A DNA stretch of 64,000 nt from Patescibacteria group bacterium (GCA_040387855.1 JAZKCY010000001.1:782922-846921), one strand, 5' to 3'. Positions 14,673-51,523 are shown, counted from the first letter of the stretch. The notes: generated from the letters alone by a model not told the origin. Made by a program: numbers and translations.

Positions 14673-14673
14673 G

Positions 14674-14973
14674 TTATTGGTAGTTAAAGATAAAGATATT
14701 TCTGATGCGACGTACGGTATCGTATACCATGGCACTAGCCCCAGCAAGCACAAGCAGAGATAATGCTTGGACTATTACTTGTGTGTGCGTAAAAGCTCCA
14801 ATAATAAATTTCCCGAAATCGACAATATTTGTAACACTTAAAGCATTTTGTAAAACATTTTGAAGAGAGACAAAAAACGCAACAGACATAATGAGTGCAG
14901 ATACAATTGCGAGTTCTATAATGAGCGGCCGTGCGACAGTCTTTAAGATATAGACCATATACACTCTGCGCAT
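14674..14973 (-). CDS. Putative anti-sigma factor / small membrane protein co-transcribed with the ECF sigma gene.
   Basis: ~99-aa ORF starting just after the sigma gene stop, with one clear TM segment (LIIELAIVSALIMSVAFFVSL), in the typical position for an anti-sigma. No sequence family recognised. The longer ORF-track version overlaps the sigma gene. Confidence 0.4.
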   Translation of the reverse strand: MRRVYMVYILKTVARPLIIELAIVSALIMSVAFFVSLQNVLQNALSVTNIVDFGKFIIGAFTHTQVIVQALSLLVLAGASAMVYDTVRRIRNIFIFNYQ

Positions 14974-20475: not shown

Positions 20476-20551
20476 AGGCCTCATACTATCACAAAATAAG
20501 ACATACAAAAACCCCTTCACCATTTTAGTGAGAGGGGCTTTTGCGAATAGA

Positions 20552-21988: not shown

Positions 21989-22293
21989 ATATTTACATGA
22001 TAGCAAAAAGCAGGATTTTATTCCTGCTTTAAGTTTGTATAGTTTTGGTTGCGTCCACGAATGGCCGACGGGGCTAGCTCCATATAAACAAATGTATTGT
22101 GAGTGCGGCCATCAGCCATTCCTAGAAACAACTCTCAGTATTGTATCTGATCATATGGAAATGTACAATATGTATTTCCCCAAAAACACAAAATCCTGCC
22201 GAAGCAGGACAATGTGACATTTGTTTATCAGAGCTAACACTTGTTAGCACTCACCCATGTAGTATAGCACTCGGATATTTTCAGTCAAGAAAA

Positions 22294-24522
22294 TTATGGC
22301 TTCACAGGATTTTTTCCTGCCCGAATATCTTTAATGTAGAGATCACCTTGTTCTTTAAATGTAGGATCAAGTTCTACGGCTTTTTGAATTTCAATAACAG
22401 CACTCTTTGTATCATTTAAGTAGAGATGTGCAGCTGCTAATGAAAGACGAGCTTTTGCATTCATTGGGTCTTTTGCAACACGTGTCTTCCATATTTCTAA
22501 GATCTTATCGAATTTCTGTTTTTCAAAATAAGCTTGAAGTAAGGTATCATTCCCTGCAATAAATTCTGGTGTGAATGTGCTAATCAGTTCTTGTGTCAAT
22601 TTTTCTTCGCCTGCATATATTGCTGCAGCTGCGTATGTTAGTCGAGCATCATCAAATTGCGGTGCCAATTCGTATGCCTGTTTGAAAAGAGGTAATGCTT
22701 TCTCGTAATCTTTTTTTGCAATATATGTAGCTCCAAGCTGGAATAATATTACTTGTTTACGTGGAGATAGTTTTTGTGCTTCTGTGAGGTATACAATCGC
22801 ATCATCATGTCGAGCTACACGATCACTAAAGCCTCCCATAATTACATATGCTCGTGCATCCTTTGGTGTTTCAGCAATCTGATTCTTTCCTTCTGCAAAG
22901 GCTAGTGCAAAAATATCAGTATTTCCTTTTATTTGATAAGGAGACATATGAATCCGTTCTGCAGTAGTTAACAATTGTTCTCGTACTTCTTGAGTACCAA
23001 TTGAACGATATGCGAGTGCTTTCCTAAAATATTCAATGTTTGGTGCTACATCACCGTTAAATGGCACAACATCATTTCCATTACGTACGGTTGCTCCTTG
23101 CTGTGAAATAGCTTGAATTAAATTAAGGTTTGTTCTAATAGATGGAACATTCACAAAGTAAATCATTGCAATTGTTGCAACAAGAGCTACTGGAGCAATA
23201 ATTCTATTTTTCTCAAATACATCATGTGTCTGCTTTGGTAGACTCTTTTGAGTTATATATGCAGCAAGAGTGAAAAAGAAAATATAACTAATCAAATTAT
23301 CGAATACAGCAATATTGTGAATAAAGTATGCGGTAAGCAATCCTGTAAGCACACTCTTCTCAGCAACAGTAAACACTGATTCTTTTCGCCATATGTACCA
23401 TAGTAAGGCTGCATATATTCCTAAGTATGATAGAAGTCCCAATATACCTCCAGCAATAAGCCAATCAAAAATCACATTGTGAGTACGATCAAACCACTGT
23501 TCCTGACCGTAGAGTTCCGGATTGTAATTTGTGTTGAACACATAATTAAAATTTTCTTGACCCCATCCAAAAACTGGTCGTTCTTTAAAGCCCTCGATCG
23601 CCATATTCCAAAGTAACAGTCGAGATTTTGTCGTAGTGTCACTGAGTGAAATTGAGGCAAAACGCTGAAGCTGTGGGTTATTTTGAACAAATGAAGTATT
23701 ACGAACGAGAATAAATCCACCGACAATAACTATTGTTGCAATGAGAATACCTCCAGCAGTTCTTCGGAGTAGTGATTTTCGTGCACCTAAGATAAGGAGC
23801 AATATACAGGTAAATAACACTCCTACAACAAGACCAATCAACGCACCTCGAGTCTCAGTTCTATAAAGAATAAAACTTTGCACGAGAATAATTGCTGCTC
23901 CAACAAGTATCTTAGCCTGACGATTGATCCATGTTATACCAAAAAGATTATATCGTCTTGATACTACAAGGTACGCGGTTATAAAAATATGAATTAAAAG
24001 ATATACGGCTAGATATGAAGCATTACCAAGTGTTGCATCAAGTCGATCACCTTGGTGAGTCTCATACATACCAGTAAGCTGCATTACGCCGTAAAAACAC
24101 ATCAGAACACTTGCAGCTATAGTCGTATTCCAAAACCAATTCCAAATTTTCTCGCTCTGAATTACAGTACTTACAACAAGAAAATAGGCCCCAAGATGGA
24201 GAAGTCCAATCAATCCTTCCATTCGTTCAAAGTTTGACCAAAAACTTTTAAATGGATTCAGCCCGGTTGCATCAGCAATAGCCATTACTCCGAGAAGTGC
24301 TCCCACTGCAATAAGTGTAAATGATTTTTGTGGGCGATACCGTTTATCTGTTACCGCTAGAATAAGCCATGCTCCAAAAAGAATTTCTACGAGAATTCTA
24401 AATACGAAACCTTTCCCTGTAATAAATGGGAAGAATAATGAGTTAGTAACTATGAATGGAATAATCAACACCAAAAAGATACCACCAATAATGCTATTCC
24501 GAAGTATTGTATTAATAGTCAT
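22294..24522 (-). CDS. O-antigen ligase/polymerase-like (Wzy_C family) polytopic membrane protein with C-terminal TPR repeats.
   Basis: About 12 TM helices with a Wzy_C-like central region and a C-terminal ~300 aa of TPR-like repeats (AYELAPQFDDARLTYAAAAIYAGE...). It is the first gene of the glycan cluster. Confidence 0.75.
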   Translation of the reverse strand: MTINTILRNSIIGGIFLVLIIPFIVTNSLFFPFITGKGFVFRILVEILFGAWLILAVTDKRYRPQKSFTLIAVGALLGVMAIADATGLNPFKSFWSNFERMEGLIGLLHLGAYFLVVSTVIQSEKIWNWFWNTTIAASVLMCFYGVMQLTGMYETHQGDRLDATLGNASYLAVYLLIHIFITAYLVVSRRYNLFGITWINRQAKILVGAAIILVQSFILYRTETRGALIGLVVGVLFTCILLLILGARKSLLRRTAGGILIATIVIVGGFILVRNTSFVQNNPQLQRFASISLSDTTTKSRLLLWNMAIEGFKERPVFGWGQENFNYVFNTNYNPELYGQEQWFDRTHNVIFDWLIAGGILGLLSYLGIYAALLWYIWRKESVFTVAEKSVLTGLLTAYFIHNIAVFDNLISYIFFFTLAAYITQKSLPKQTHDVFEKNRIIAPVALVATIAMIYFVNVPSIRTNLNLIQAISQQGATVRNGNDVVPFNGDVAPNIEYFRKALAYRSIGTQEVREQLLTTAERIHMSPYQIKGNTDIFALAFAEGKNQIAETPKDARAYVIMGGFSDRVARHDDAIVYLTEAQKLSPRKQVILFQLGATYIAKKDYEKALPLFKQAYELAPQFDDARLTYAAAAIYAGEEKLTQELISTFTPEFIAGNDTLLQAYFEKQKFDKILEIWKTRVAKDPMNAKARLSLAAAHLYLNDTKSAVIEIQKAVELDPTFKEQGDLYIKDIRAGKNPVKP

Positions 24523-24599
24523 AATAGTGAGACTATATCAGATAACACTATACAGAGCTACTTCAAATAATGGAATAACAACACTATTTACTATATAGT

Positions 24600-25859
24600 A
24601 TGATCATGAATACTTTTCTCGATTGGCTCCAACGAAGACTCAAAACTGATGTACGATACCTTGCTTCAGGTAGCTTTTGGCTCAACCTCAATTTTGTTAT
24701 AACTTCGCTCTTCTCATTTTTACTTTCAATAGCCTTTGCACACTTTGTTCCAAAAGATGTGTACGGTACGTTTCATTACATTATTTCTCTTGGAGGAATC
24801 ATCACTGCCCTCACCCTTTCAGGGATGAACTCTGCAGTTGTACTTGCTGTTGCACAAAATAATGAAGGTACTTTTAAACGCTCAATAATTGCTCAAGCAA
24901 AATGGAGTGTTGTTCCATTTATAGTAGCACTCTGTATGAGTGGGTATTATTTTTATAACAATAATACTATTCTTGCCATCTCTTTAATTATTATTTCTGT
25001 ACTAGTGCCTATTTCTTCTGTTGCAAATACTTACTCTGCCTTTCTCCATGGAAAAAAAGATTTCCGATCTAGTTTCTACTATGGGTTAATCATTAATGCT
25101 ATCTATTACGGAATTCTTTTTATTACTATTCTCTTTACCAACAATGTTCTCCTTATTTCGCTTGCATTCTTTATTGCTACAACTTTAGGAAATGTAGTTT
25201 CATATATTCTTACCTTTATTAAATATAAACCCAACAATCTTGTTGATGAAAAAAGTATTACCTATGGTAAGCATATGAGTGTGATGGGAGGATTTGGAAT
25301 GATTGCTAGTAAAATAGATAGTGTTCTTGTTTTCCATTATACGGGTGCCGTTGATCTCGCTATCTATACCTTTGCAAAAATCATTCCAGAGCGAGTTACC
25401 GGATTGTTTAAATCTGTAGGCTCAGTTGCATTGCCAAAATTCGCACAAAGGAATGAACAAGAAATACGAGCGACAGTCCTTCCTAAGACCATTCTGTTTG
25501 CTATTTTTATCTTTGTCTCATGTCTTTTCTATATACTTATTGCCCCATTTGTATTTAGAACATTTCTACCAAACTATGTAGATGCGATCGTATATACCCA
25601 AGTATTCTCACTTACTATTTTAATTGCAGCAGCAAACCTTCCAGTGTCAGCACTTATCGCTCACCGTTTGCAATCTCGACTCTATATATTCAATATAATA
25701 AATACGATCGTTCAAATCAGTGTTCTCTTTGTCCTTATCGTTCCCTTTGGAATTTGGGGAGCTGTCTATGCAAAGATAATCTTTAGTATCTTCTATGTAC
25801 TATTTGCCCTTGTGTTGTTTTTGATTCCTCACAAATCACAAGATCTAACTCTCAAATAG
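24600..25859 (+). CDS. Wzx-like polysaccharide/O-unit flippase (MOP superfamily).
   Basis: 419 aa with ~12 TM helices and the typical polysaccharide-biosynthesis-protein topology; it sits next to the Wzy-like gene. Confidence 0.75.
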   Translation: MIMNTFLDWLQRRLKTDVRYLASGSFWLNLNFVITSLFSFLLSIAFAHFVPKDVYGTFHYIISLGGIITALTLSGMNSAVVLAVAQNNEGTFKRSIIAQAKWSVVPFIVALCMSGYYFYNNNTILAISLIIISVLVPISSVANTYSAFLHGKKDFRSSFYYGLIINAIYYGILFITILFTNNVLLISLAFFIATTLGNVVSYILTFIKYKPNNLVDEKSITYGKHMSVMGGFGMIASKIDSVLVFHYTGAVDLAIYTFAKIIPERVTGLFKSVGSVALPKFAQRNEQEIRATVLPKTILFAIFIFVSCLFYILIAPFVFRTFLPNYVDAIVYTQVFSLTILIAAANLPVSALIAHRLQSRLYIFNIINTIVQISVLFVLIVPFGIWGAVYAKIIFSIFYVLFALVLFLIPHKSQDLTLK

Positions 25860-26825
25860 AATTTCTGACCCTGTATCAGTAAAGGTAAATGGAATCTCAC
25901 GAAGCTTAGAAAGTGCAGCTCGTAGTTTTTTATGATTTTTCTTTTCAGAATAGAATAAGAGGAACCCTCCACCACCTGCACCTAAAAGTTTTCCACCTAT
26001 CGCTCCGTTGTTTATACCAAGAGAATAATATTTATTTATAAGTTTATTGGAAATTGTATTTGCTAATGACTGCTTAAGTTCCCAACCAGTATGAAGCAGC
26101 TTTCCAAAAGCATGCAGATTTCCAGCTTCAAGGACAGCTTTGGTTTCATATGCAATTTCCACCATTCGTTTTGTAGCATCTATTGCATGAAAACTTGTCT
26201 GTAAATTTTCTTTTTGTTTTTCTAATATGGTATTAGCAGAACGAGTAATTCCTGTATAAAATAATAAGAGATTCTCTTCTAATTCTTTTTTTATTTTAGG
26301 CTGTATCCTTACGGGTTCAACAGTTACTTTCCCGTTCTTTAAAAACTTGTAGAGATTTAGCCCTCCATACGCTGCAGCATATTGGTCTTGCTTACCAATA
26401 GGTGAACCAAGCTTTTTAATTTCAGTCTCGCACGCTTTTTGTGCAAGCTGTTCTGGAGTTAGATGCTTTCCAAATTTGTATGTATGCAAAATATTGTGAA
26501 GTCCTACAGCAAAGGCACTTGAAGAACCTAGCCCAGTTTTACCAGGAATATCACCCATTGTTTCTATCCCAATTCCTGTGATCTTTAAATCAGTAATAAT
26601 TGATCGAGCTATACTATTCTTTATTTTTAAAACATTCTTTACGTTCTCGGTTTTACTATACTTAAGCAAAATTTTATCCTGCTCAAAGTTTTGATGCGCA
26701 GTTATATGAATGAATTTATCAATAGAAGTACTCACAACAGCTCCACCATATTTTTTGTAAAAATCTGGTAGATCAGATCCCCCACCAGCAAAACTAATTC
26801 TATAGGGTGTTCGGCTGAGTATCAT
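25845..26825 (-). CDS. hddA: GHMP sugar kinase, D-glycero-D-manno-heptose 7-phosphate kinase (HddA)-like.
   Basis: N-terminal RTPYRISFAGGGSDLPDFY is characteristic of HddA-type heptose-7-P kinases. A GHMP ATP-binding loop (PGKTGLGSSSAFAVG) is also present. Confidence 0.75.
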   Translation of the reverse strand: MILSRTPYRISFAGGGSDLPDFYKKYGGAVVSTSIDKFIHITAHQNFEQDKILLKYSKTENVKNVLKIKNSIARSIITDLKITGIGIETMGDIPGKTGLGSSSAFAVGLHNILHTYKFGKHLTPEQLAQKACETEIKKLGSPIGKQDQYAAAYGGLNLYKFLKNGKVTVEPVRIQPKIKKELEENLLLFYTGITRSANTILEKQKENLQTSFHAIDATKRMVEIAYETKAVLEAGNLHAFGKLLHTGWELKQSLANTISNKLINKYYSLGINNGAIGGKLLGAGGGGFLLFYSEKKNHKKLRAALSKLREIPFTFTDTGSEILFES

Positions 26826-26892
26826 AGTGGATTACACATTACCACACTTAGTATTTTAGGGGTAGATGTGCTACATTAGCCATATAATTCAT

Positions 26893-27825
26893 ATGACATC
26901 TGATAAAAAAACAATCCTTGTAACAGGTGGTGCAGGTTTTATTGGTTCAAATACCGTAAATCTTTTATGTGATCAAGGTCATGCTGTTAGAGTAATTGAT
27001 GACCTCTCTTTTGGATACGAAGAATTCTTAGACCCACGAGCTACTTTTTTCAAAGGTTCACTTGCTAATAATGATGTGCTTGATAAAGCATTGTCGGGTG
27101 TGGATGTGGTTATGCACTTTGCAGCATCAAGTATTATTAAATTTTCTATAGATAATCCCCTCACCTATATTGAAAATAATATTGTAAACAGCACAAAACT
27201 TCTTGAAGGTATGCGACGAAATAATGTAAAAAAGATTGTATTCTCTTCTTCTGCATCTGTCTATGGTGAACCTTTAGAAATTCCTATTACTGAAAGTCAT
27301 CAAAAAAAGCCTCTGCAACCTTATGGCGCAAGTAAGATGGCATTTGAAGATATTTTGAGTGGCTATCATCACAGCTTTGGCATTGAGAGCGTTTCACTTA
27401 GATTTTTTAATGTGTATGGGCCTCGCGATGAGCAACAGCCGGCTACACGTGCAGTACCACTATGGATTAAAGCAATTCTTAGGAATGAGCCAGTTGGAGT
27501 CTACTGGAACGGTGATCAACTTCGTGATTATATTTTTGTGCGCGATGTAGCTCAAGCTCACAGTGATGTTATGAATCTGCCAGGTTGCAATGCATTTAAT
27601 ATTGGATCCGGCTCTGGAATTATAATGCGCGATCTTTTGGAAGAAATCGTAAAACTCACAGGCAGTACCTCTGAAATAAAAGATCTTGGAGAGCGCTTGG
27701 GAGACCCTGCAAAGCTTGTAGCTGATACGTCAGCAATACATAAAGCTGTTGGATGGAAACCCAAAGTTTCTCTTACTGAAGGTCTTCAAGAAGCAATAGC
27801 GTTTTACAAAAGCAGAATGAAATAA
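26893..27825 (+). CDS. NAD-dependent epimerase/dehydratase (extended SDR).
   Basis: TGGAGFIGS Rossmann motif and a YGASK catalytic YxxxK. The start is probably MTSDKK at 26893 rather than the track start at 26866. Confidence 0.8.
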   Translation: MTSDKKTILVTGGAGFIGSNTVNLLCDQGHAVRVIDDLSFGYEEFLDPRATFFKGSLANNDVLDKALSGVDVVMHFAASSIIKFSIDNPLTYIENNIVNSTKLLEGMRRNNVKKIVFSSSASVYGEPLEIPITESHQKKPLQPYGASKMAFEDILSGYHHSFGIESVSLRFFNVYGPRDEQQPATRAVPLWIKAILRNEPVGVYWNGDQLRDYIFVRDVAQAHSDVMNLPGCNAFNIGSGSGIIMRDLLEEIVKLTGSTSEIKDLGERLGDPAKLVADTSAIHKAVGWKPKVSLTEGLQEAIAFYKSRMK

Positions 27826-27826
27826 T

Positions 27827-29035
27827 ATGAAAGCAGTTATTCTGTGTGGAGGATTGGGTACACGACTACGACCTCTTACCGATACAATTCCAAAAGTCAT
27901 GGTACCTATAGGCGGCAAACCGCTTATTCAACGTCATATAGAATGGCTTGTGGGGAATGGCATTCAAGATATTGGTATTAATCTTTTTTATTTACCTCAA
28001 GTTGTAAAAGATCATGTGAAAGATGGATCTCAGTGGGGAGCACGAATTCATTACTCTCATCAAGATACACTCTCAGGAACAGCTGGAGACTTTCGAGCTT
28101 TTAAAGATTTTGTGGGTGATCAACAGTGTCTTGTGATTTATGGTGATAATTTATTTTCTTTAGACCTGAATCATTTCAAAGAATTTCACGAAGCAAAAAA
28201 AGGAACAGCAACAATTGCCCTGCGTGAATGGGAAGATCCCACATCGAAAGGTATCGTTGGATTAGATAACGAGCAGAAAATTCTATGGTTTAAAGAAAAA
28301 CCAAAGCCTGAAGAAGTAACGAGTACTATTGGCAATGCTGCTATTTATATTCTCGAACCCGAATTATTTTCACATATTCCAGATACAGGAGAAGTAGACT
28401 TTGGTATGCATACCTTCCCTTCTCTATTAGAAAAAAATAAACATATCTATGGATATGTACTTTCTACGTATCACAAAGATATTGGTACGCATGAAGCATT
28501 ACAAGAGGCTCGAGAAGATATACAAAAAATATATCCACACAAAGCAGTATTTCTTGACCGCGATGGAGTATTAAATAAAAAACCTGCAGTATATGATTAT
28601 GTGAAAAGCTTTGAAGAATTTGAATGGAATCCTGGAGCGAAAGAACTTGTTAAGCAGATAAAAGAGCTTGGTTTTTTAGCTGTAGTCATTAGCAATCAAC
28701 AAGGCGTGGGACGTGGAAAAATGTCTGCTCAATTTGTGAACGAGCTTCATCAAAAGATGCAGCAAGATCTAGTAGAATATGGAACTTCAATAGATGGCTT
28801 CTATTTTTGTGGGCACTTACGATCAGATGGATGCACATGTCGGAAACCGCAGCCAGGAATGCTTTTTCGTGCAGCAGAGCAACATGGTATCAATCTTGAA
28901 AAGAGCTTTATGATTGGAGACACTATTACAGATATGGAAGCAGCCCGAAAAGCAGGCTGTACAGAAATCTTTATAGAAAGTGATACTATTAATAACGAAT
29001 TAGAAAAAATCCTAGAGATTCTAAAAAAGTCATAA
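27827..29035 (+). CDS. Bifunctional fusion: sugar-1-phosphate nucleotidyltransferase (HddC/GDP-heptose guanylyltransferase-like) at the N-terminus plus D,D-heptose 1,7-bisphosphate phosphatase (GmhB, HAD family) at the C-terminus.
   Basis: N-terminal ILCGGLGTRLRPLT nucleotidyltransferase motif. C-terminal FLDRDGVLN HAD motif I plus the GmhB-specific CGHLRSDGCTCRKPQPGM zinc/cysteine motif. Confidence 0.8.
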   Translation: MKAVILCGGLGTRLRPLTDTIPKVMVPIGGKPLIQRHIEWLVGNGIQDIGINLFYLPQVVKDHVKDGSQWGARIHYSHQDTLSGTAGDFRAFKDFVGDQQCLVIYGDNLFSLDLNHFKEFHEAKKGTATIALREWEDPTSKGIVGLDNEQKILWFKEKPKPEEVTSTIGNAAIYILEPELFSHIPDTGEVDFGMHTFPSLLEKNKHIYGYVLSTYHKDIGTHEALQEAREDIQKIYPHKAVFLDRDGVLNKKPAVYDYVKSFEEFEWNPGAKELVKQIKELGFLAVVISNQQGVGRGKMSAQFVNELHQKMQQDLVEYGTSIDGFYFCGHLRSDGCTCRKPQPGMLFRAAEQHGINLEKSFMIGDTITDMEAARKAGCTEIFIESDTINNELEKILEILKKS

Positions 29036-29036
29036 T

Positions 29037-30116
29037 ATGATTATTCACATTGTATCTACTGTTCCCCAGGGTAATTCACTTTTTCGTAGAGCTTTAGACA
29101 AAGCAATTCGAATTACAGGAATTATACCTCCGCTTCATCGATATGGGATTGATGCTTTGATTCCTTGGAAAAAACCACTGCGCTCTCCTCATGCATCATC
29201 TCGAAATCTTTTGCATCATTTTAAAAAGCTTGGAAAAGTAAAATATTATAGTCTGTATGAAAAAGGAGTTATCAAGCTTGCACCTGATGATATTTTTCTA
29301 GGACAAATAGTGCCCGATGGCGGATTTACCTATGATTCACGACCACAGACAGATGATCACGCATCTATTACTTCTCGCACATTAAGAGAAAATCCGGACA
29401 ACCACAATAAATATCTCATAATTCCTTTTGCAAATGATAAAGCACTCTGGGGATGGTCAAAAGATATAGTAGAAAACCATGCTGATAAAGTAGTACTCAT
29501 TGCTGGGGAAATTTGGACTCGCAATTGGAAAGATGGAGTATATCCAAGTCTTGATCTAAAAAATGTTGTGCGCATAGATAACGGAATTGATCCATTAGAA
29601 TATCCCATAATTAAAAAGTCATTCAACAAACCTGAAAACAGAAAGTTCTTATATATTGGACATACTGCATTTTATAAGAATACTAAAGAACTTGAACGTA
29701 TAGCAGAACAAATGCCTGGATTTGTGGGAGGACACATTGGTCTAGGTAATGTAAAAGGCTGGAAAAAAATTGCAGACTTTGCAGATCTCACTCCAGAGTT
29801 CATGACAAAGATCGCAGAGGAATATGATATATTCGTGACAACGAGCTCAGCAGACGCTCAAGCTACTACTATTATGGAAAATATGTGTTTTGGCTTCCCT
29901 ATTGCTTGCACTCCAGAAACAGGATATGAATACCCATCAATTGTGAAGCTTGACACAACCAATACTGAAGCTAATATTAAGGCACTTACCATGTTAAAAA
30001 ACATGAGTGAGCCTGAATTAAAGGCACTCGTAGATGAAAACTTAAAAGTGATACAAAAATTCCATACATGGAATACCTACGTTACAACAATTTCAGATTT
30101 TATGAATTTAAAATAA
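29037..30116 (+). CDS. Putative GT-B fold glycosyltransferase.
   Basis: The C-terminal half resembles GT4-type nucleotide-sugar binding domains (RKFLYIGH... TIMENMCFGFPIACTPETG). The N-terminal half is divergent. Confidence 0.5.
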   Translation: MIIHIVSTVPQGNSLFRRALDKAIRITGIIPPLHRYGIDALIPWKKPLRSPHASSRNLLHHFKKLGKVKYYSLYEKGVIKLAPDDIFLGQIVPDGGFTYDSRPQTDDHASITSRTLRENPDNHNKYLIIPFANDKALWGWSKDIVENHADKVVLIAGEIWTRNWKDGVYPSLDLKNVVRIDNGIDPLEYPIIKKSFNKPENRKFLYIGHTAFYKNTKELERIAEQMPGFVGGHIGLGNVKGWKKIADFADLTPEFMTKIAEEYDIFVTTSSADAQATTIMENMCFGFPIACTPETGYEYPSIVKLDTTNTEANIKALTMLKNMSEPELKALVDENLKVIQKFHTWNTYVTTISDFMNLK

Positions 30117-30120
30117 TACA

Positions 30121-30726
30121 ATGGAAAAGAAATCCCTAGCCCTTGAAAGACAGTTGGTAAGTAAAGAACAGTTGAGAGAAATTGAACTGAGTATGATTCG
30201 ACAAGAGCATATCAAACGGTATGCGTCTATCAGACGTTTCTGCTACGGAAAAGTACTAGATTGCGCATGTGGATCAGGGTATGGTTCATTTCTTATTTCT
30301 GGAAATCCTGACGTAGAACACGTAACTGGTGCTGATATTAATGCAGAAGCAGTTGTGTGGGCACAAAAAGAATATGGTGACAAGAAAAATAAATTTATTG
30401 CTGCATCTGCTGACACAGTGAAAGGCAAATTTGATACCCTCGTAACCATTGAAACAATTGAACACATCAAAGATTCAAGTACAATCCCAACTCTTGTTGA
30501 GCGATGCAAAATAGATAATCTTATAATCTCATTCCCCGACAAAAAGACCATGCACTACAATACCCATCATATGCATGATTTTGTACGACAAGAAATTGTT
30601 GATCTTTTTCCTAATCATGTGGTCTATCACGTAATGCGATTTACTGATAGTACAACTCTGATGATGATCCGTCTTCCAAAAAAAGCCCCGCATGATCTGT
30701 TTAAGAATATCCGGGACATACACTAG
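30121..30726 (+). CDS. Class I SAM-dependent methyltransferase.
   Basis: Motif I VLDCACGSGYG, an acidic loop and a motif II-like region (LVTIETIEHI). Confidence 0.75.
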   Translation: MEKKSLALERQLVSKEQLREIELSMIRQEHIKRYASIRRFCYGKVLDCACGSGYGSFLISGNPDVEHVTGADINAEAVVWAQKEYGDKKNKFIAASADTVKGKFDTLVTIETIEHIKDSSTIPTLVERCKIDNLIISFPDKKTMHYNTHHMHDFVRQEIVDLFPNHVVYHVMRFTDSTTLMMIRLPKKAPHDLFKNIRDIH

Positions 30727-30744
30727 TCGAGAGTGTTTTAGTGA

Positions 30745-31392
30745 TTATTTAACAGCCTGAATATTGAGACTGATTAGGATATCTTTTCCACCTGCTTTCA
30801 TTACACGTGATGCTTTATCATCAAAATCTCGATGCTCTACTTTTGTGTAATCCCAAAGTGAAACATCTTTATATCCTAGTTCTTTAAGCAACGATCGCGC
30901 ATATGCTTCATTCCAAATAGTATGATGATCATCATACTCTCCATCTTGGCCCAATAATTGATTTACAATTGATTCCGTATTTTTACCTGACAAGGTATAC
31001 ACTTCTACTAAGGCATCAAAATTTGGCACTCCAAATCGTAATATTCCTCCAGGTTTTAATACACGCTTCCATTCTAAAAGTGTCTTCTTAAGATTTTTTC
31101 GTGGAAGATGTTCAACAACATGACTTGCATAGAGAAGATCTACTGAGTTATTTGGCAGCATTCCTAAGTCCTGAATATTTGCTATGTGGTGAATATGAGG
31201 TAAATAAATCGCATCAACATTTATATATTCTTCACTTGTGTTGATTCCTGCTCCCAAGTTTACATATACTTTACCATCTGCATTCTTAGGCAATTTTGGA
31301 CTTATAAGTCTTCGATAAAGATAGTGATATTTTCTCAATACTGATTTCTTTGTATTTCGGACAATTCGGGCAATTAATTTAAGTGTTTTCAT
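30745..31392 (-). CDS. Class I SAM-dependent methyltransferase (Methyltransf_11-like).
   Basis: VNLGAGINT motif I, VDLLYASHVVEHL and LKPGGILRFGVPN. Confidence 0.75.
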   Translation of the reverse strand: MKTLKLIARIVRNTKKSVLRKYHYLYRRLISPKLPKNADGKVYVNLGAGINTSEEYINVDAIYLPHIHHIANIQDLGMLPNNSVDLLYASHVVEHLPRKNLKKTLLEWKRVLKPGGILRFGVPNFDALVEVYTLSGKNTESIVNQLLGQDGEYDDHHTIWNEAYARSLLKELGYKDVSLWDYTKVEHRDFDDKASRVMKAGGKDILISLNIQAVK

Positions 31393-31396
31393 AATA

Positions 31397-32485
31397 TTAT
31401 TTTGCTTGATTATAACACTCAGCCACTAACTGCGAAAGCTCTTTTCCCAGTACATCCGGTGTAAACGTTGATTGGCATAGAGCATACCCATTTTCGGCTA
31501 ATGATGCCTGTAATTGTGCATCCGATTTCAAATCGAGGATCTTATTAGCAAGATCATTAGGATCAGCCTTGTTACAAAACAGTACATTTTCTTTATCTGT
31601 AAATACATCTTGTACTCCAGTAGCTTGAGCTGTTATATACGGCAATCTCATCGCAAGAGACTCATACGATTTATGAGGTATGGTTCTTTCAAGTCGCACA
31701 TGATCAGCAAATTGACCCAAGCTCACATGACAACTCTGCATAAGCATTCGCAACTCTTCAAAAGAAAGGTACTTAGCGATGAATGTAATAGTAGAAATAT
31801 TTTGAGATTTTATATATTCTTCAATCCCTGTAGCACGAGCATCACTATTGGAAGTTGCAATAATTACATCAACATCATGAGCTTCTAAAATTCGCGCAGC
31901 ATCAACGATATGAGCAATCCCCGCTTCTTCCATAACTGTTCCTCTAAAAACTGCTGTAAACTTTTTTCTTTTTGAAGTTTCAATTGGATAGAAAACAGAA
32001 GTATCAACTCCAGTTAATACTCTAATAACTTTTTTCTGATCAAGATTAAATCGCTTAACAAAGAAATCTTTTTGAGGATTACTTTCAACTAAAACTTTAT
32101 GAGCACATTTTACGGCAAGCCAATCTATACATTTAATACTAGTCTTTTTAAACCACGACATTGGACGTGCAGTACGTGAGAGTACTTCAGCTTCATACAA
32201 GCTGCACAACGCATCAAATATGATAGGTTTTGAGCTTATGAGTCGTGCAAAGGGCACGGTTATGTATCCTGTGTACCCCACGATCAACACATCATAGTCA
32301 TTTCTTATTTTCCAATGTTTTTTAAATAACCTGAAAAATTTAAGTATGCCTCTACTATCATCTTGGCATTCAATAATATGAATTCCCTGTGCACGCAGAC
32401 CGTCTTGATAGATTTTATTACGAGAAAACTGGGATTTATAAATCCCAAAATAGCACACAGTAATTTTCTGAGATGATCCTTCCAT
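31397..32485 (-). CDS. Glycosyltransferase, GT-B fold (family 4-like).
   Basis: The size and the C-terminal domain pattern match retaining GT4 enzymes; it sits in a run of glycosyltransferase genes. Confidence 0.65.
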   Translation of the reverse strand: MEGSSQKITVCYFGIYKSQFSRNKIYQDGLRAQGIHIIECQDDSRGILKFFRLFKKHWKIRNDYDVLIVGYTGYITVPFARLISSKPIIFDALCSLYEAEVLSRTARPMSWFKKTSIKCIDWLAVKCAHKVLVESNPQKDFFVKRFNLDQKKVIRVLTGVDTSVFYPIETSKRKKFTAVFRGTVMEEAGIAHIVDAARILEAHDVDVIIATSNSDARATGIEEYIKSQNISTITFIAKYLSFEELRMLMQSCHVSLGQFADHVRLERTIPHKSYESLAMRLPYITAQATGVQDVFTDKENVLFCNKADPNDLANKILDLKSDAQLQASLAENGYALCQSTFTPDVLGKELSQLVAECYNQAK

Positions 32486-32486
32486 A

Positions 32487-33128
32487 TTATTTTTGTGCTG
32501 TCACATAATATCCTAATGCATAGTCTTCAGTACTGTACTGCTTTCGGAGTATTTTTGAGACTACATTAAATAGGCTATCCAATAGATATGTTATGTATCT
32601 TCCTGTGTAAAAATTAATAAATCGAATAGGCCATGGCATCAAGCGATCAATAAAAAGGTATTGTGCACTAAAAACTCCGGTACCCAAAGATTTTATTTTG
32701 ATATTTTTTAATGACAGAAGCTCCAGCTCTGCTTTCAATGTCATTTGTGTAAATCTCCTAAAATCTAACGGTGAGGGATGAACTGGAAATAGAAATGGAA
32801 CCACGATTACGAGCATTCCTTTAGGTTTTATTATTCGAACAGATTCTTTCAAGAGCTCTTTATAAGCAAAAATATGTTCTAACACATTTATGAGAATAGC
32901 ATGATCATACTGAGCATCTTTACAGGGCAAGCTTTTTTCTAAATCATGAAAAATATCAGGAGCGACCTTGTCATTAAGGTTAATAGTTGTAATCGTATGA
33001 GATCCTTTTATAACTGATGCATACTTTGAATTTTTATCACCACCAATATCTACAATACTGCCGTTAAGTGTGAGTCCGGCTAATACTTTATCCTCTTCAA
33101 TTCGTAAAAGTGATGGAATTGATTTCAT
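32487..33128 (-). CDS. Class I SAM-dependent methyltransferase.
   Basis: VDIGGDKNS motif I and HAILINVLEHI motif II region; the start overlaps the downstream glycosyltransferase stop by 4 nt. Confidence 0.7.
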   Translation of the reverse strand: MKSIPSLLRIEEDKVLAGLTLNGSIVDIGGDKNSKYASVIKGSHTITTINLNDKVAPDIFHDLEKSLPCKDAQYDHAILINVLEHIFAYKELLKESVRIIKPKGMLVIVVPFLFPVHPSPLDFRRFTQMTLKAELELLSLKNIKIKSLGTGVFSAQYLFIDRLMPWPIRFINFYTGRYITYLLDSLFNVVSKILRKQYSTEDYALGYYVTAQK

Positions 33129-34153
33129 ATAGATGCATATAATTTTTCTGACAATTTTGTGAGACTGTGATTATCACACACATAGTTTCGTAAGACTGTT
33201 CCGTATTGTGCTTTTTGATCATTACTTAAATTAATAAGCCACTCTAACTTTCGTGCAAGATCAGTGCTATCACCTTCCCTAAAAATAAAGGAGTCATCAA
33301 CTTCTCCCTTTAAATTATCATTTGAAGCAATAGATAGACTCTCACATGCCATTGCTTCAAAAATGGTTTTATCATACATACCACTTGAGCTTAAATTCAC
33401 AAATATTTCATGTTTATTGTATACAGGAACTGTGTCAGTATTTGGTATTCCCTTATGAAATGAAACATTGTGCTTTAAATTATATGCATCTGTTTTTTCC
33501 ACCAGACTTGTATAATACTCTTTATCTTTAACTAAAGGATCACCATAAAAACTAACTGTAGCACTTATATTTCTATCTTTGAGCTGTTTAACGGCCTCAA
33601 GAAGTATATGCGGCTTTTTCGCAGGAGCAATACGAGCAAGAAATAATAATGTTTTTTCTTTTTGAATATTTGAATCTCTTTTGAAAATATCCACATCAAT
33701 ACCCACTGGCATAAATTTTACTTTTTTGTATTTTGCAGTATAAGAAAATTTTGAAGTACAAAAGACATTGGTGCAAAAAGCTGCAGCTATATCTGTGAGC
33801 ATAGATCCTGCATGATGATTTCTCCACATGTAAATCTTCTTACCAAAAAGCTTCCACAGTAATCCCCCCATAAGGATATACTCTTGATTCATATGAACAA
33901 AGACAGCATCATAATTTTTTCTAAACTTAAAAAGATATATATAAAAATTACGTATATATTTAAACCGTGATGGGCCTATTTCTTTACCCAAAGATACAAC
34001 TGTTACATTAGAAGGAAGATTTACGGACCCTTTATATAGACAGACTACAGTAATGTGTTCATACTTGTGTGAAAAAACTTCAATCCATCGATGAAAAAAC
34101 CCCAATATTGGATCATTACTATCTACCTTTTGAGTATAAATAAGAAGTTTCAT
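33125..34153 (-). CDS. Glycosyltransferase family 4-like.
   Basis: C-terminal E-x7-E-like region (TIFEAMACESLSIASN) typical of GT4 enzymes. Confidence 0.7.
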   Translation of the reverse strand: MKLLIYTQKVDSNDPILGFFHRWIEVFSHKYEHITVVCLYKGSVNLPSNVTVVSLGKEIGPSRFKYIRNFYIYLFKFRKNYDAVFVHMNQEYILMGGLLWKLFGKKIYMWRNHHAGSMLTDIAAAFCTNVFCTSKFSYTAKYKKVKFMPVGIDVDIFKRDSNIQKEKTLLFLARIAPAKKPHILLEAVKQLKDRNISATVSFYGDPLVKDKEYYTSLVEKTDAYNLKHNVSFHKGIPNTDTVPVYNKHEIFVNLSSSGMYDKTIFEAMACESLSIASNDNLKGEVDDSFIFREGDSTDLARKLEWLINLSNDQKAQYGTVLRNYVCDNHSLTKLSEKLYASI

Positions 34154-34524
34154 GAACGGAAAATAAAATGTTTATAGATGAAGTAACTAAGTACAGCTAT
34201 AAGTAAACTAGCAATAATTTGGGCTACTAAATAATAAGCATGAAGTATATCAACTAAAATGTAAAGGATGAGCGTATTTAAAACTACATTAATAAGTGCA
34301 TTAGCTAGATACAGCCCAATCTCAACATTAATTTTGTTTAGAGGATCATGTGAGAATGTCCACCACTTTTGAAGTATAAAACTCACTACAATTGATAGAG
34401 CAAACGCATAGATACCAGACTGTAGGTACCATATATGGAAAACATCGGTAAACAGATATAAAAAGAAAAGCTGTGTTCCCGCCCCAATACTACCTGCCAA
34501 ACAAAATTTTAGAATCCTATGCAT
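34150..34524 (-). CDS. GtrA family membrane protein (polysaccharide-synthesis accessory, 4 TM).
   Basis: 124 aa with four TM helices and a GtrA-like N-terminus (FCLAGSIGAGTQLFFLYLFTDVF). Confidence 0.7.
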   Translation of the reverse strand: MHRILKFCLAGSIGAGTQLFFLYLFTDVFHIWYLQSGIYAFALSIVVSFILQKWWTFSHDPLNKINVEIGLYLANALINVVLNTLILYILVDILHAYYLVAQIIASLLIAVLSYFIYKHFIFRS

Positions 34525-35668
34525 TTGGCGGAAAAGCTTTCTCTAAGTATGCTTTATACTTTGCAACATAATCTTCATGACTTTGTGGAAGTGATGCGGC
34601 AACATCTTGCGCCACATTTTTTCTGATTCGGTCTCGTAATAAGGGATCTTCAACCAATGCGGATAGCTTTTGCACAAAGCATGAATGATCACCTACTGGA
34701 CACACCATAGCGTTTTTATTATCAATTAAAACATCTCCCGCTATTCCCACATCGGACGTTACAATTGGTAAGTCAGAAAGTCCCGCTTCTACAAGAGTCA
34801 TGCCATAACCTTCAAACGACGAAACCTGGAAAAAAGCTTGTGCTGATTTGTAGTACGGTGCCAAATTTGATTGCCATGGTTCAAAAACTACAGAATCGCT
34901 AATTCCAAGTTTTGCAATTTTCTTTTTTAAGGCAGCTTCTTCTGGACCCTCTCCCACAATCACAAGACCACACTGTGGAAATCGAATAACAACATCTTTA
35001 AACACATCCAATGCAAAAGATATATTTTTCTCAGGAGCTAAACGTGATGCCATCAAAATAATAAAATTATATTGAGGATACTTTTGAATGAGCTCACGTG
35101 AGACGACTGGCATATATTTTGTCTTATCAACGTATATTGGCAAAACATCAATAATTTGTTCGGGAATCTTGAGTTCTTTTATAATAGACTGCTTGATCTT
35201 ATTTGAAACCACTCTAATTTCCTGAGCATAAGGTAAAATACTTCGAGCCATTTTTACTCTATGTTTATTGAGAAAAGACTGCTTTAGAAACTGTGGGTTA
35301 AACAATTCTGTATGAACCTGCAGTTGCATTGGAAAACCAAATTTTTTTCTTAATCCAAATGCCACACTTCCTGTCTCAAATGGGTCTTGAGCTGTTACTA
35401 CAGTATTGTGAGCAGTTAGATTTCGCTGTTTGACAATTGTTTGCGCTAGACCTCCAGCATCACGCATGTACAACAATTTAGTAAACGAATTTGTCGGATA
35501 CACCCATACATTATTTGAGATTCTCCATGCTTCTAATCCCAACGATGACTGAGCAAAAACAATGATATGTAGTTGATCAAACAATGCACCGTACTCGATC
35601 ATTCGCTGTCGCACAGCGCTTCCTTCTTCAAATATCTTTCTATCAGTACCTATTGATATAACATTCAT
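34517..35668 (-). CDS. Glycosyltransferase family 4-like.
   Basis: GT-B C-terminal motif (EGYGMTLVEAGLSDLPIVTSDVG). The start is probably MNVISIGTD at 35668, which removes the overlap with the upstream gene. Confidence 0.7.
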   Translation of the reverse strand: MNVISIGTDRKIFEEGSAVRQRMIEYGALFDQLHIIVFAQSSLGLEAWRISNNVWVYPTNSFTKLLYMRDAGGLAQTIVKQRNLTAHNTVVTAQDPFETGSVAFGLRKKFGFPMQLQVHTELFNPQFLKQSFLNKHRVKMARSILPYAQEIRVVSNKIKQSIIKELKIPEQIIDVLPIYVDKTKYMPVVSRELIQKYPQYNFIILMASRLAPEKNISFALDVFKDVVIRFPQCGLVIVGEGPEEAALKKKIAKLGISDSVVFEPWQSNLAPYYKSAQAFFQVSSFEGYGMTLVEAGLSDLPIVTSDVGIAGDVLIDNKNAMVCPVGDHSCFVQKLSALVEDPLLRDRIRKNVAQDVAASLPQSHEDYVAKYKAYLEKAFPPNA

Positions 35669-35678
35669 ATATGTATGA

Positions 35679-36824
35679 TTAAAAGTATTTTTTATAGAGT
35701 CGTAAATGTTCAACAAGGACATGATTCCATGTATTATCTACATGCAACTCACTCAAAGAAGCAACGAATCTTTCATATTCGTGAGGAATAGTAAGCTTGT
35801 TCATTTTTTCAGCAATGTCATCCACTGATGCTGGATCTACTTTAAGGAAGTCGTTTTTATTGAGTTTTAAATAATGCTCTTTTGTTAGCAAAAACGGTAT
35901 ACCCAGAGACATACATTCATAAATTTGATTGGGTGAAATATCTGTCCAACTTGGTAATATCACATAATAGCAATTCGCAATTCTTCGGTATAAATCAGCT
36001 TGTCCCATAGTAGGAAGGAATTGCACTCTTGATTCAAGATGTAATGATCGAACTAGTTCTCTTAATTCATTTTCTATTGGGCCACTTCCGATAAGTGTAA
36101 AGACAAAACTTTTATCTTTAAGCAATGCAAATGCTTTGAGTGCAGAATCAATATTCTTCATACGAATAAATCTTCCAACAAATACTATTTCTTTATCTCT
36201 ATCGGCATATGACGTTTTATATGTTTGCACGAGATTAGCAAATCTGTTTTCAGGAACTGGATTATTTATCGTGGTTATCTTTTCTGGTTTTAGGCCGTAG
36301 TGTTTTTGATATAATTCCCGTTGTTGATCAGAATTGAATACTACAAAGCTTGCAGATTTTAGCACTCGTTTAATAAAGAAATAGAGAACTTTATATTCTT
36401 TGTACAAACGATCTTCATAAAACTTTTTAAGTGTCATAGGAGGACGCCCTTCTGAAAGATATTTCTCCCAAATATATCCACCCCCAACTCGCACAGCATA
36501 TTTCTTACGGGTAAGCCACGACACAAACATTACTGGTACTCCTGCAGAAAACCAGTCCATTGAGTATATAAAGTTATATGCTCGAGCTTCTTTAAATACA
36601 GCACTGAAATATGCTATATAGTTGAGCAATTTATTTTTTCTCCGCACAACTCGCGTGAGATGAAATTGAAATTCTTTATCAAAAACATATTCCGACTGAT
36701 CAGAATATGTGATTACACGCACGGTATGCCCTGCAGAAGAAAGACGTCGAGCTAGCTCAACCGTATACGTTGCAGGACCTCCTGGTTCTGGTTTAAAAAT
36801 TCCGGTTGTAATAAGAATTCTCAT
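35679..36824 (-). CDS. Glycosyltransferase family 4-like.
   Basis: MRILITTGIFKPEPGGPATY N-terminal GT4 signature and a C-terminal YECMSLGIPFLLT. Confidence 0.75.
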   Translation of the reverse strand: MRILITTGIFKPEPGGPATYTVELARRLSSAGHTVRVITYSDQSEYVFDKEFQFHLTRVVRRKNKLLNYIAYFSAVFKEARAYNFIYSMDWFSAGVPVMFVSWLTRKKYAVRVGGGYIWEKYLSEGRPPMTLKKFYEDRLYKEYKVLYFFIKRVLKSASFVVFNSDQQRELYQKHYGLKPEKITTINNPVPENRFANLVQTYKTSYADRDKEIVFVGRFIRMKNIDSALKAFALLKDKSFVFTLIGSGPIENELRELVRSLHLESRVQFLPTMGQADLYRRIANCYYVILPSWTDISPNQIYECMSLGIPFLLTKEHYLKLNKNDFLKVDPASVDDIAEKMNKLTIPHEYERFVASLSELHVDNTWNHVLVEHLRLYKKYF

Positions 36825-36854
36825 TACCCTCTATAATAGCTTACTTACCAACAA

Positions 36855-37988
36855 TTATGAAGAAAGAAATTCCTTATCAATTCGCTTTACTATGAGTGGC
36901 CAGCTGTACTTATTTTTGGCCATATCTTGAGCATTTTGTACTATTTGTTCTTTTAACTCATGATTATCCAAAATCTCAGTAACAGACTCAACTATACTTT
37001 GAGGATCATTTACTCTACAGAATAATCCTGTTTTTCTATCTTCCAAGAAATCTGGGATTCCTCCTACTGGTGTAGCAATCACAGGAATACCAGCTGCCAT
37101 TGCTTCAATAAACGATATCCCCTGTCCTTCTGATAGTGAAGGTCGTATAAAAATATCTGAAACAGCAAGATATTTTGGAAGATCTACATTTTCTTTTTGA
37201 CCTAAAAATAATACTCTTTCTGTAAGTTTTAGATCTGCAACTTGCTTGCGCAGTGTATCTTCAAGTGGACCGATACCAATAACAGCAAATTTTATTGAGT
37301 GTGGTAGTAAAGCCATCGCCGCTATAACATCACCAATGCCATTTTTGGCAACAAGACGTGATGTTGTAATGAGCAGCCTTTCCCCTTTTTCTTTTCCCAA
37401 TTCTTTAAAAACTAACTCTAACTGTGCATCGGAAAATGTTTTCATGAAAACTGTGGTATCAACACCATTTGGAATAACTACTATCGGACATGTTGCCCCC
37501 ATATCTTTTCCAAATGTAGCTAAGAACTGTGATATAGCATGAATACGATCTGCTTTCTTAAAAATTTTCTTAAACAAAAAGTACAAGATTCCTACTTGTC
37601 TTTTTATATGCTGCAGTGAATCACCTTCTTGAAGTGTTAAAAAGAATGGTATTTTAGGATGAATTAGTTTAAAAAAAAGTGCTGCAAATCCACTAAAACT
37701 AGCCATGATACTCCACGTGGCATCATACTTTTCAGTTCTATGACGCCTATTTGCAAAATAGTATGCAGTAAAAGGAAATAATAATTTTGATAATCTACCT
37801 TTCATTCCCACTCTAAAGACATCGATGTTGCCTATTCGTTCATACGGCAATTGTTTACCATCAAGATTGAGAGTAACCATATCAAACTCATATTCGTGAA
37901 GTCTGTCGGTAATCTCTTTAACAGCAACTTCTGCTCCCCCAATAAATGGATGATATGCAACTGAAAAAATCAGAATTTTCTTTTTCAT
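36855..37988 (-). CDS. Glycosyltransferase family 4-like.
   Basis: MKKKILIFSVAYHPFIGGAEVAV start and C-terminal EGQGISFIEAMAAGIPVIATPVGGIPDF. Confidence 0.8.
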   Translation of the reverse strand: MKKKILIFSVAYHPFIGGAEVAVKEITDRLHEYEFDMVTLNLDGKQLPYERIGNIDVFRVGMKGRLSKLLFPFTAYYFANRRHRTEKYDATWSIMASFSGFAALFFKLIHPKIPFFLTLQEGDSLQHIKRQVGILYFLFKKIFKKADRIHAISQFLATFGKDMGATCPIVVIPNGVDTTVFMKTFSDAQLELVFKELGKEKGERLLITTSRLVAKNGIGDVIAAMALLPHSIKFAVIGIGPLEDTLRKQVADLKLTERVLFLGQKENVDLPKYLAVSDIFIRPSLSEGQGISFIEAMAAGIPVIATPVGGIPDFLEDRKTGLFCRVNDPQSIVESVTEILDNHELKEQIVQNAQDMAKNKYSWPLIVKRIDKEFLSS

Positions 37989-47978: not shown

Positions 47979-48514
47979 ATATTTTGTGAATAATAATTAG
48001 TCCTTTTAGAGAGACAATGTAGACAATCATACTCATTTTTAGCCAAAATGCAATAAATGAGGCAACGAACCGCCGGCACTATTGTTAGAGATATAAAAAA
48101 AGTCCTTAACACCGATCGTGGTGCTAGGACTGCTTATTTGCCGCTCGCTCAGCGGCGCGGAGCTCTTCGAGCTTCAACGTCTGGACTCCAGCCCACTCTC
48201 GGGCCGTGAATCCTCGAGCACTTGGACACGTGAGCAGATGAGGACGCCCCCGATAGTTGACACTGCTCGTTCGGGTCCGTGGACCATCGGCTTGGGCCTG
48301 GGCCCTTTCGGTAGTTGATAGAGACATGCAAACACCTCGAGATGAAAACATCGTAATCCCTTACGACGGTAGGTACTTTGACCTACGAACTAACATGAAC
48401 TCAGATACTGGTTAAAAAACCTCCCTTCTACATACATATATGCAAAATGAGACCAGACTAAATGGTACTACGAATATATAATGTGTCAACCCATGTATTA
48501 AGTCCCGACTTGTG

Positions 48515-48587: not shown

Positions 48588-48722
48588 ATTTACATTTCCC
48601 TGAAATGTAAGTGGAATATATCAGAAAACAGCAAAACAGGCAATATATAATAATGAGGACCCCAGGCACAGTGTGCTGGGGTCCAGAGGATGGGAACGGT
48701 ACTGTATGACGCGTGGGCTTGA

Positions 48723-51517: not shown

Positions 51518-51523
51518 GTTTTA

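Follow-up and report, generated by a model that had tools for sequence, protein, structure and literature searches.

In Campylobacter, a surface-glycan locus carries a heptose pathway with a GHMP-type HddA kinase, a GmhB-type phosphatase and a nucleotidyltransferase, alongside a short-chain dehydrogenase/reductase (SDR) that may modify the nucleotide-heptose. The route has been described for C. jejuni from sedoheptulose-7-phosphate via a 1,7-bisphosphate, and one of its genes, gmhB, lies outside the glycan cluster (PMC10680097). O-antigen and capsule clusters of the Escherichia coli type hold Wzx, a Wzy_C-family protein, several glycosyltransferases (GTs) and nucleotide-sugar genes in a variable island. 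A flippase, about five to six GTs and several methyltransferases are found together in PglL/WsaB-type O-glycosylation loci (Neisseria; the Geobacillus S-layer) and in the O-glycan locus of Tannerella forsythia. Genes of the hdd type also occur in S-layer glycan loci, as in Aneurinibacillus. Patescibacteria are regarded as lacking an outer membrane and lipopolysaccharide. Here we analysed a 64,000-nucleotide stretch of a Patescibacteria genome (the window, by which the whole stretch is meant throughout), in which positions 22294-37988 hold a cluster of 15 back-to-back genes, 15/15 of them in glycan-related families. We think it probable that Paceibacteria-type Patescibacteria have a recurrent, variable envelope-glycan island beside secA-murB, of which this cluster is one copy, and in which the heptose genes form an accessory cassette.

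All components of the cluster come from known superfamilies, and in kind it is an ordinary cluster for a polysaccharide or glycoprotein, built like the loci for O-antigens, capsules, S-layer glycans or general O-glycosylation. One gene of the heptose pathway is missing from the cluster, as in C. jejuni. The differences from the Campylobacter pathway are that GmhA is the one missing from the window, that the phosphatase and the nucleotidyltransferase are fused, that the transferase is not HddC-like by score, and that a GalE-like SDR, coupled to the transferase gene, replaces the Campylobacter set of dehydrogenase, cupin epimerase and reductase. In comparison with O-antigen and capsule clusters, no chain-length regulator or separate ligase was found in the window, and the Wzy_C protein ends in a TPR domain. 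With the PglL/WsaB-type loci the cluster shares its gene mix and a Wzy_C enzyme with an Arg/His loop for en bloc transfer, but the fusion of Wzy_C and TPR is not known from the characterised enzymes of that type. Finally, the fusion of the window shares its two domains, at 30-45% identity, with proteins from Bacteroidota, Firmicutes, Planctomycetota and archaea that carry the annotation 'HAD-IIIA family hydrolase' and likewise neighbour an HddA-like kinase and GmhA; in the Patescibacteria version, in contrast, the SDR always lies between the kinase and the fusion and an adjacent GmhA is often absent. The novelty is modest, and consists of a fused heptose cassette that is coupled to an SDR and lacks a linked GmhA, of an unrecognised GT-B family accompanied by a methyltransferase, and of the position beside secA-murB.

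Gene content and recurrence of the cluster

The window is AT-rich (GC about 37%). Its proteins are identical to those of a metagenome-assembled genome deposited at NCBI as 'Patescibacteria group bacterium' (contig of 981,549 bp), and their nearest relatives are labelled Paceibacterota, Pacebacteria or Parcubacteria. Genes were assigned by scanning the open reading frames (ORFs) of the window with Pfam and NCBIfam profiles, and the ORF calls and these scans bore out the list of genes and coordinates given in the original prediction, an earlier reading of the same DNA. The cluster extends from the stop of the minus-strand Wzy_C-TPR gene (22294) to the start of the last GT4 gene (37988), with the following genes:

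22294-24522, minus strand: membrane protein with a Wzy_C domain and C-terminal TPR (Wzy_C-TPR), 742 aa; Pfam Wzy_C 77.1 bits (cutoff 31.7) at residues 211-367, TPR families at residues 550-725
24600-25859, plus strand: Wzx-type flippase of the MOP superfamily, 419 aa; Pfam Polysacc_synt (PF01943) 49.2 bits, cutoff 28.2
25845-26825, minus strand: HddA-like GHMP sugar kinase, 326 aa; best NCBIfam model HddA
26866-27825, plus strand: GalE-like extended SDR of the epimerase type, 319 aa; NCBIfam galE 234.8 bits
27827-29035, plus strand: nucleotidyltransferase-GmhB fusion, 402 aa, MES2437243.1; NTP_transferase at residues 2-233, HAD-IIIA/GmhB at residues 238-388
29037-30116, plus strand: divergent GT-B protein, here called U359, 359 aa, MES2437244.1 (annotated as hypothetical); assigned by predicted structure
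30121-30726, plus strand: class I S-adenosylmethionine (SAM) methyltransferase MT1; Pfam Methyltransf_31/25/11
30745-31392, minus strand: class I SAM methyltransferase MT2; Pfam Methyltransf_11 43.8 bits
31397-32485, minus strand: GT4 glycosyltransferase GT_a; Pfam Glycos_transf_1 46 bits
32487-33128, minus strand: class I SAM methyltransferase MT3; Pfam Methyltransf_11/23
33125-34153, minus strand: GT4 glycosyltransferase GT_b; Pfam Glycos_transf_1 64.5 bits
34150-34524, minus strand: small membrane protein of the GtrA family; Pfam GtrA_DPMS_TM 78.5 bits, three hydrophobic segments
34517-35722, minus strand: GT4 glycosyltransferase GT_c; Pfam Glycos_transf_1 113.8 bits
35679-36824, minus strand: GT4 glycosyltransferase GT_d; Pfam Glycos_transf_1 69.8 bits, Glyco_transf_4 60.1 bits
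36855-37988, minus strand: GT4 glycosyltransferase GT_e; Pfam Glycos_transf_1 134.5 bits

With 15 glycan genes in a row, and with their set found again in relatives, this is not a chance pattern. The count of six GT-B enzymes made originally also stands, five of them being recognised by Pfam and the sixth, U359, by its predicted fold. U359 had no Pfam or NCBIfam match at normal thresholds (Glycos_transf_1 reached 14.6 bits, E=0.024, against a cutoff of 26.4). Comparison with the GT4 genes of the cluster by hhalign gave a probability of 70% over 195 columns, covering residues 145-346 and including E281...E294. An AlphaFold (AF2) model built from 46 homologues had a mean confidence (pLDDT) of 95.6, and a Foldseek search with it returned GT-B/GT4 enzymes at probability 1.0, the top matches including GlgM, SenB, WaaG, the methylmannose-polysaccharide mannosyltransferase (7qsg) and BshA. 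Together with the hhalign comparison, this model makes U359 a GT-B glycosyltransferase, a class marked by a fold of two Rossmann domains and a C-terminal E-x7-E region. The GT-B enzymes of the cluster have no hydrophobic segments where this was checked.

The U359 family is small and found mostly in Patescibacteria. About 122 relatives were retrieved by a word-indexed search of 5.8 billion sequences, and those listed by it have no Pfam domains, except for one partial protein. A profile search at E<=1e-3 picked up only 473 representatives in a library of 1.84 billion. In that library a GT-B domain of the U359 type also occurs inside proteins of 1400-3200 aa (P0420, P0455, P0471, P0437 and P0438).

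We scanned metagenomes with the U359 profile, which yielded 56 further loci, and clustered the neighbouring ORFs. U359 almost always adjoins a methyltransferase: in 22 loci an MT1-type gene follows directly downstream, and in 15 a Methyltransf_24 gene stands upstream. Its other companions in related loci are those of the window, namely Wzx (15), a GT_a-type GT4 (15), Wzy_C-TPR (13), MT2 (11) and MT3 (10), together with further GT4 enzymes, FkbM-type and other methyltransferases and, at times, NeuB. Two relatives, L084 and L085, keep the order of the genes from Wzx to MT1; in them, the five genes from the kinase to MT1 are 60-72% identical to those of the window and Wzx 38-40%; the GT_a copy of L085 is 45% identical. 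In the window the cluster is flanked by the genes for SecA (17941-20523) and MurB (20966-22006), and the same two genes flank the island in L085, L094, L109, L110 and L111, where, as in the window, they are neighbours of the Wzy_C-TPR gene.

The heptose cassette lies within a U359 island in the window, L084 and L085. Neither the kinase nor the fusion was found near U359 in any of the 56 further metagenome loci (0/56), which argues that heptose is an accessory cassette and that methylation is not tied to it. The original prediction had proposed a methylated heptose, and nothing specific was found in favour of it, as the methyltransferases and U359 recur in these 56 loci where the heptose genes are missing. 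U359, whose gene would be co-transcribed with those for heptose, was also considered as a dedicated heptosyltransferase, a role that we rejected on the same count. The core of the island (Wzy_C-TPR, Wzx, U359 with its methyltransferase, and more methyltransferases) and its swappable cassettes provide a map for glycan analysis in co-culture.

The putative heptose cassette

The kinase (25845-26825) is a predicted HddA-like 1-kinase for the 7-phosphate of D-glycero-D-manno-heptose. HddA is its best NCBIfam model (181.6 bits; the equivalog cutoff of 600 was not reached), and its best matches in the PDB, at 1e-47 to 1e-39, are all heptose kinases: 3k85 from Bacteroides, 4n3o from Campylobacter, and 4usk/4usm (4usk being WcbL of Burkholderia). 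Other sugar kinases of the PDB matched at 1e-15 (fucokinase) and 1e-12 (galactokinase), in agreement with the earlier assignment to HddA and not to galactokinase. The motifs AGGGSD, GLGSSS, GKQDQYAAAYGG and GAGGGGF are common to the kinase and the solved heptose kinases, and the GKQDQYAAA (QDQY) and GHMP motifs of the family are shared. The protein is 62-67% identical to the products of the syntenic genes in L001, L002, L084 and L085. A kinase of the GHMP (HddA) type leads one to expect the alpha-anomer route, and it is to this HddA-type route that the enzyme of the window points.

The context of the fusion gene was examined with a fusion profile in one genome per GTDB species, which gave at least 20 full-length fusion loci, all relatives being at most 45% identical. 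Among the matches listed, an HddA-like kinase is encoded in the flanks of 18 of 20 full-length fusion loci and GmhA in the flanks of 17 of 20, so that the fusion family appears as part of a widespread module of kinase, phosphatase-nucleotidyltransferase and isomerase. The listed loci belong to Saccharibacteria, Lachnospiraceae (Firmicutes), Holdemanella, Mollicutes, Bacteroidales, Prevotella, Spirochaetaceae, Acidobacteriota and others. A 1-kinase together with a 7-phosphatase is chemically sensible only for a 1,7-bisphosphate, which implies such an intermediate. Heptose as the sugar of the cassette is thus supported by the gene context and by the relatives of the kinase. In a metagenomic survey of freshwater members of the Candidate Phyla Radiation (CPR), heptose biosynthesis was encoded in Paceibacteria only (PMC9166423).

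Eight Patescibacteria loci with the cassette were compared (the window, L001, L002/L003, L084, L085, L086, L087 and the P0017 contig), and in 8/8 the kinase lies on one strand, followed by the SDR and the nucleotidyltransferase on the other. In L086 and L087 the transferase gene is directly followed by a GmhA-like SIS_2 gene, and in L002 a methyltransferase gene separates the two. U359 and a methyltransferase occupy this place after the transferase in the window, L084 and L085. Within the window, the genes of Wzx (plus strand) and the kinase (minus strand) converge with an overlap of 15 bp (25845-25859), and those of the kinase and the SDR diverge from a gap of 40 bp (26826-26865); counted from the second methionine of the SDR, at 26893 and probably its true start, this gap is 67 bp. 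A scan for promoters and terminators was uninformative, as there were fewer promoter-like sites than in shuffled sequences. In the relatives without U359 (L001, L002, L086 and L087), a conserved GT2 gene (341 aa) lies directly downstream of the heptose kinase, and L001 also has PMT_2 (GT-C) genes, the coordinates noted for L001 being 1229-3418 and 4808-5893. These GT2 and PMT_2 genes are candidates for heptose transfer in the relatives without U359; the window has no GT2.

In the fusion protein (27827-29035), the scans recognised an NTP_transferase domain (Pfam, 154.6 bits) and HAD families. Its C-terminal half is GmhB-like in sequence. The domain models TIGR01656 (144.4 bits, cutoff 84.15) and TIGR01662 (108.4 bits, cutoff 44.6) were exceeded, the equivalog models PRK08942 (156.2 bits, cutoff 178) and TIGR00213 (127.3 bits, cutoff 149.6) were not, and the GmhB entries 3l8h, 4pnh, 3l8e and 2gmw of the PDB matched at about 1e-25. 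The motifs DRDG, RKP, GD...D and the zinc loop C328-x-H330-x5-C336-x-C338 are invariant in the relatives of the fusion. By the same kind of evidence, the N-terminal half is a generic sugar-1-phosphate nucleotidyltransferase, whose sequence alone does not fix the sugar and the nucleotide: it scored 148.4 bits as mannose-1-phosphate guanylyltransferase, 136 as long RmlA and 96.3 as HddC (cutoff 300), and matched the HddC structures of Yersinia at 1e-16 at best. Of the HddC-GmhB fusion proposed originally, the GmhB-like part is supported, and the HddC part finds little support in these scores. The guanosine diphosphate (GDP) of the proposed GDP-heptose is likewise putative, the transferase half scoring better against mannose-1-phosphate and glucose-1-phosphate transferases than against HddC. 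To our knowledge, GDP is the nucleotide in all characterised cases of the alpha heptose route, and by analogy we assume it here. Separate adjacent genes encode the transferase and the phosphatase in the P0017 contig, so that the protein of the window is a simple gene fusion. Our literature searches found no biochemical study of any member of the nucleotidyltransferase-GmhB fusion family.

The SDR (26866-27825) falls short of the galE cutoff (262.3 bits) in NCBIfam and scored 130.7 bits with heptose_epim. Its best matches in the PDB, 6dnt and 4zrm, are 4-epimerases of uridine diphosphate (UDP)-hexose and UDP-GlcNAc. It had been described as an epimerase/dehydratase, and the first term is the fitting one: the active-site motif is SSSAS...YGASK and not the Thr-Asp-Glu (TDE) of 4,6-dehydratases. 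A 4,6-dehydratase and an HldD-type 6-epimerase were both rejected, given the GalE-type motif and a galE score far above those of the heptose_epim and dehydratase models. In 8/8 Patescibacteria loci the SDR gene lies directly upstream of the nucleotidyltransferase gene, 1 bp apart or with a 4-bp overlap, and this fixed coupling suggests that the SDR epimerises the nucleotide-heptose. Some Firmicutes and Chloroflexi (L014, L017, L023 and L078) also have GalE-like SDRs within their heptose modules. The fusion and the SDR coupled to it make a convenient, uncharacterised target for enzymology.

Proposed assembly route and alternative readings

From the gene identities, the predicted fold of U359, the synteny and the co-occurrence of the genes we infer substrates, nucleotide, acceptor and order of steps as follows. 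By homology and gene neighbourhood, the GmhB half would take off the 7-phosphate, the nucleotidyltransferase half would form the nucleoside diphosphate (NDP)-heptose, and the translationally coupled GalE-like SDR would probably epimerise it. At the cytoplasmic face of the membrane, the six soluble GT-B enzymes would assemble a lipid-linked hetero-oligosaccharide, and the three SAM methyltransferases would O-methylate it. The Wzx-type flippase would then carry the glycan across the membrane, and Wzy_C-TPR would hand it to a surface acceptor (protein, wall or lipid anchor) or polymerise it.

Several results weigh against this scheme. Among the scanned ORFs of the window there was no initiating transferase of PF02397 or PF00953 and, by Pfam, no Wzz-type chain-length regulator. 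Probes of the PglC and MraY/WecA types matched in non-CPR loci, but neither in the window nor in any of about 60 Patescibacteria loci. E. coli WecA is encoded outside most O-antigen clusters, and the initiating enzyme of the present system would have to be encoded elsewhere in the genome. No GT of the cluster could be assigned to heptose; the NCBIfam equivalog cutoffs were reached neither by the kinase nor by the GmhB and HddC halves of the fusion, and the nucleotidyltransferase half is nearer to generic hexose-1-phosphate transferases than to HddC. GmhA was not found in the 64-kb window, either by tblastn with the GmhA of a relative or by Pfam scans, and the sole SIS protein of the window is GlmS (12852-14753); that GmhA is not in the window had been stated in the original prediction. 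It was also not found in the available sequence of L001, L084, L085 and the P0017 contig. A GmhA orthologue at 60-70% identity, the level of the other proteins of the module, should rank near the top of a search with L002 GmhA, and the source contig was absent among the 120 listed relatives, where a divergent GmhA could rank lower. Lastly, literature searches found no experimental work on CPR glycans; a study of Saccharibacteria pili only predicts O-glycosylation of the pilin (PMC12206443).

The last step of the scheme depends on Wzy_C-TPR (22294-24522). Its hydropathy profile has about 11-13 hydrophobic segments and a loop of 77 residues (274-350) with FDRTHN at 344-349, and R225, R287, R301, G319, G321, D345, R346 and H348 are invariant in 13 members. 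The Arg, Gly and His residues of the loop resemble motifs of O-antigen ligases and O-oligosaccharyltransferases (WaaL, PglL), a likeness of motif only. The charge distribution weakly hints at an extra helix, which would put the TPR domain on the outer side of the membrane, outside the cell. Searches of the Wzy_C and Wzx sequences against solved structures returned TPR matches only, or none; Wzx has at least nine hydrophobic segments. The Wzy_C domain does not tell a polymerase from a ligase or an oligosaccharyltransferase. The single Wzy_C gene, the lack of a chain-length regulator in the window and the protein-binding kind of the TPR domain incline us slightly towards en bloc transfer, with a short methylated hetero-oligosaccharide going to a surface acceptor, rather than polymerisation, although the sequence cannot decide between the two. 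The dependence on Wzx and Wzy proposed at the outset thus holds for Wzx, and is qualified for Wzy_C, which is present and may equally be a ligase or O-oligosaccharyltransferase; the initiator and the chain-length regulator of such a system are not in the window.

In a classical Wzx/Wzy system, Wzy_C-TPR would instead polymerise repeat units into a long heteropolysaccharide, either capsule-like or of the secondary cell-wall kind. The genes of Wzx and of the Wzy_C family do stand side by side, the island is set among cell-wall genes (murB, Mur ligases, glmS), and the tandem Wzy_C-TPR paralogues of three relatives, L096, L097 and L098, would fit a polymerase and a ligase. The window, however, has one Wzy_C protein, with no separate ligase seen beside it and no regulator of chain length; the proteins under the Pfam Wzy_C model are mostly ligases or oligosaccharyltransferases, which the conserved Arg/His loop fits equally well, and TPR domains usually bind proteins. 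A polymer of this kind is possible, and we hold it to be rather doubtful. The tandem paralogues, maybe a polymerase and a ligase, are located at 12329-16940 in L096, at 12329-16940 in L098 and at about 4663-6864 in L097.

The missing GmhA, both in the sequences searched and among the relatives of the L002 enzyme, would also fit a cassette that makes no heptose in this organism and serves to activate some other sugar, such as a hexose taken up from the host, with the HAD domain in another phosphatase role. The likeness of the transferase half to generic mannose-1-phosphate and glucose-1-phosphate transferases and that of the SDR to UDP-hexose 4-epimerases are in line with such a cassette. We consider it unlikely, however, as only a bisphosphate intermediate, which is the hallmark of heptose activation, would call for the pairing of a 1-kinase with a GmhB-type phosphatase, and as the nearest characterised relatives of the kinase are all heptose kinases. 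Three close Patescibacteria relatives have an adjacent GmhA, as do, among the matches listed, the 17 of 20 distant fusion loci given above, and genes of the pathway may sit elsewhere, with C. jejuni gmhB as a precedent (PMC10680097).

CPR cells live attached to hosts, and their surface chemistry probably matters for attachment. One might go further and suppose that Wzy_C-TPR puts a lineage-specific, O-methylated heptose glycan on pili or surface proteins for host recognition, and that a cassette without a GmhA of its own draws on heptose-7-phosphate (or on sedoheptulose-7-phosphate isomerised by another enzyme) that ultimately comes from the host; this is a speculative idea to which we give little credence. 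We give still less to an intracellular polymethylated polysaccharide like the methylmannose or methylglucose polysaccharides of mycobacteria, for which the wealth of methyltransferases in the islands, the conservation of the U359-methyltransferase pair as their most constant unit and the resemblance of U359 to, among others, 7qsg would speak, since Wzx, Wzy_C-TPR and GtrA, which serve export and transfer at the outer face, are consistently part of the island and many other GT4 enzymes match U359 at least as well as 7qsg does in Foldseek.

Neighbouring features of the window

Upstream of GT_e on the same strand, 9 bp away and with no terminator-like site in between, lies a gene for a P-loop ATPase of 608 aa (37997-39823, minus strand) that is VirD4/TraD/HerA-like and has no hydrophobic segments. 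Between the island and the Mur ligase genes, the minus strand encodes a putative glycoside hydrolase of the DUF4015 family (40212-41480, 289.6 bits) with one N-terminal hydrophobic segment. Neither of these two genes is conserved in the related islands.

Further on, 1.5 kb (47978-49460) contain no ORF of 100 aa or more and have a GC content of 0.58-0.63 in 100-bp bins, compared with about 0.37 elsewhere. The gene for tRNA-Ile(GAT) lies within this GC-rich segment (48514-48587, minus strand), and Rfam reported nothing else there. Two small GC-rich ORFs are found on the minus strand, one of 93 aa with a good ribosome-binding site (48723-49004) and one of 75 aa (48124-48351). The segment looks like foreign DNA beside a tRNA gene. 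The 16S rRNA gene is located at 58308-59833 (minus strand), with no 23S gene after it in the window, and the region between it and the tRNA gene (49460-59833) holds ORFs of 180, 450, 386, 636 and 1102 aa with no Pfam match. At the other end of the window, an ORF of more than 1533 codons without a Pfam match (2-4600, minus strand) runs off the window start and may encode a large surface protein.

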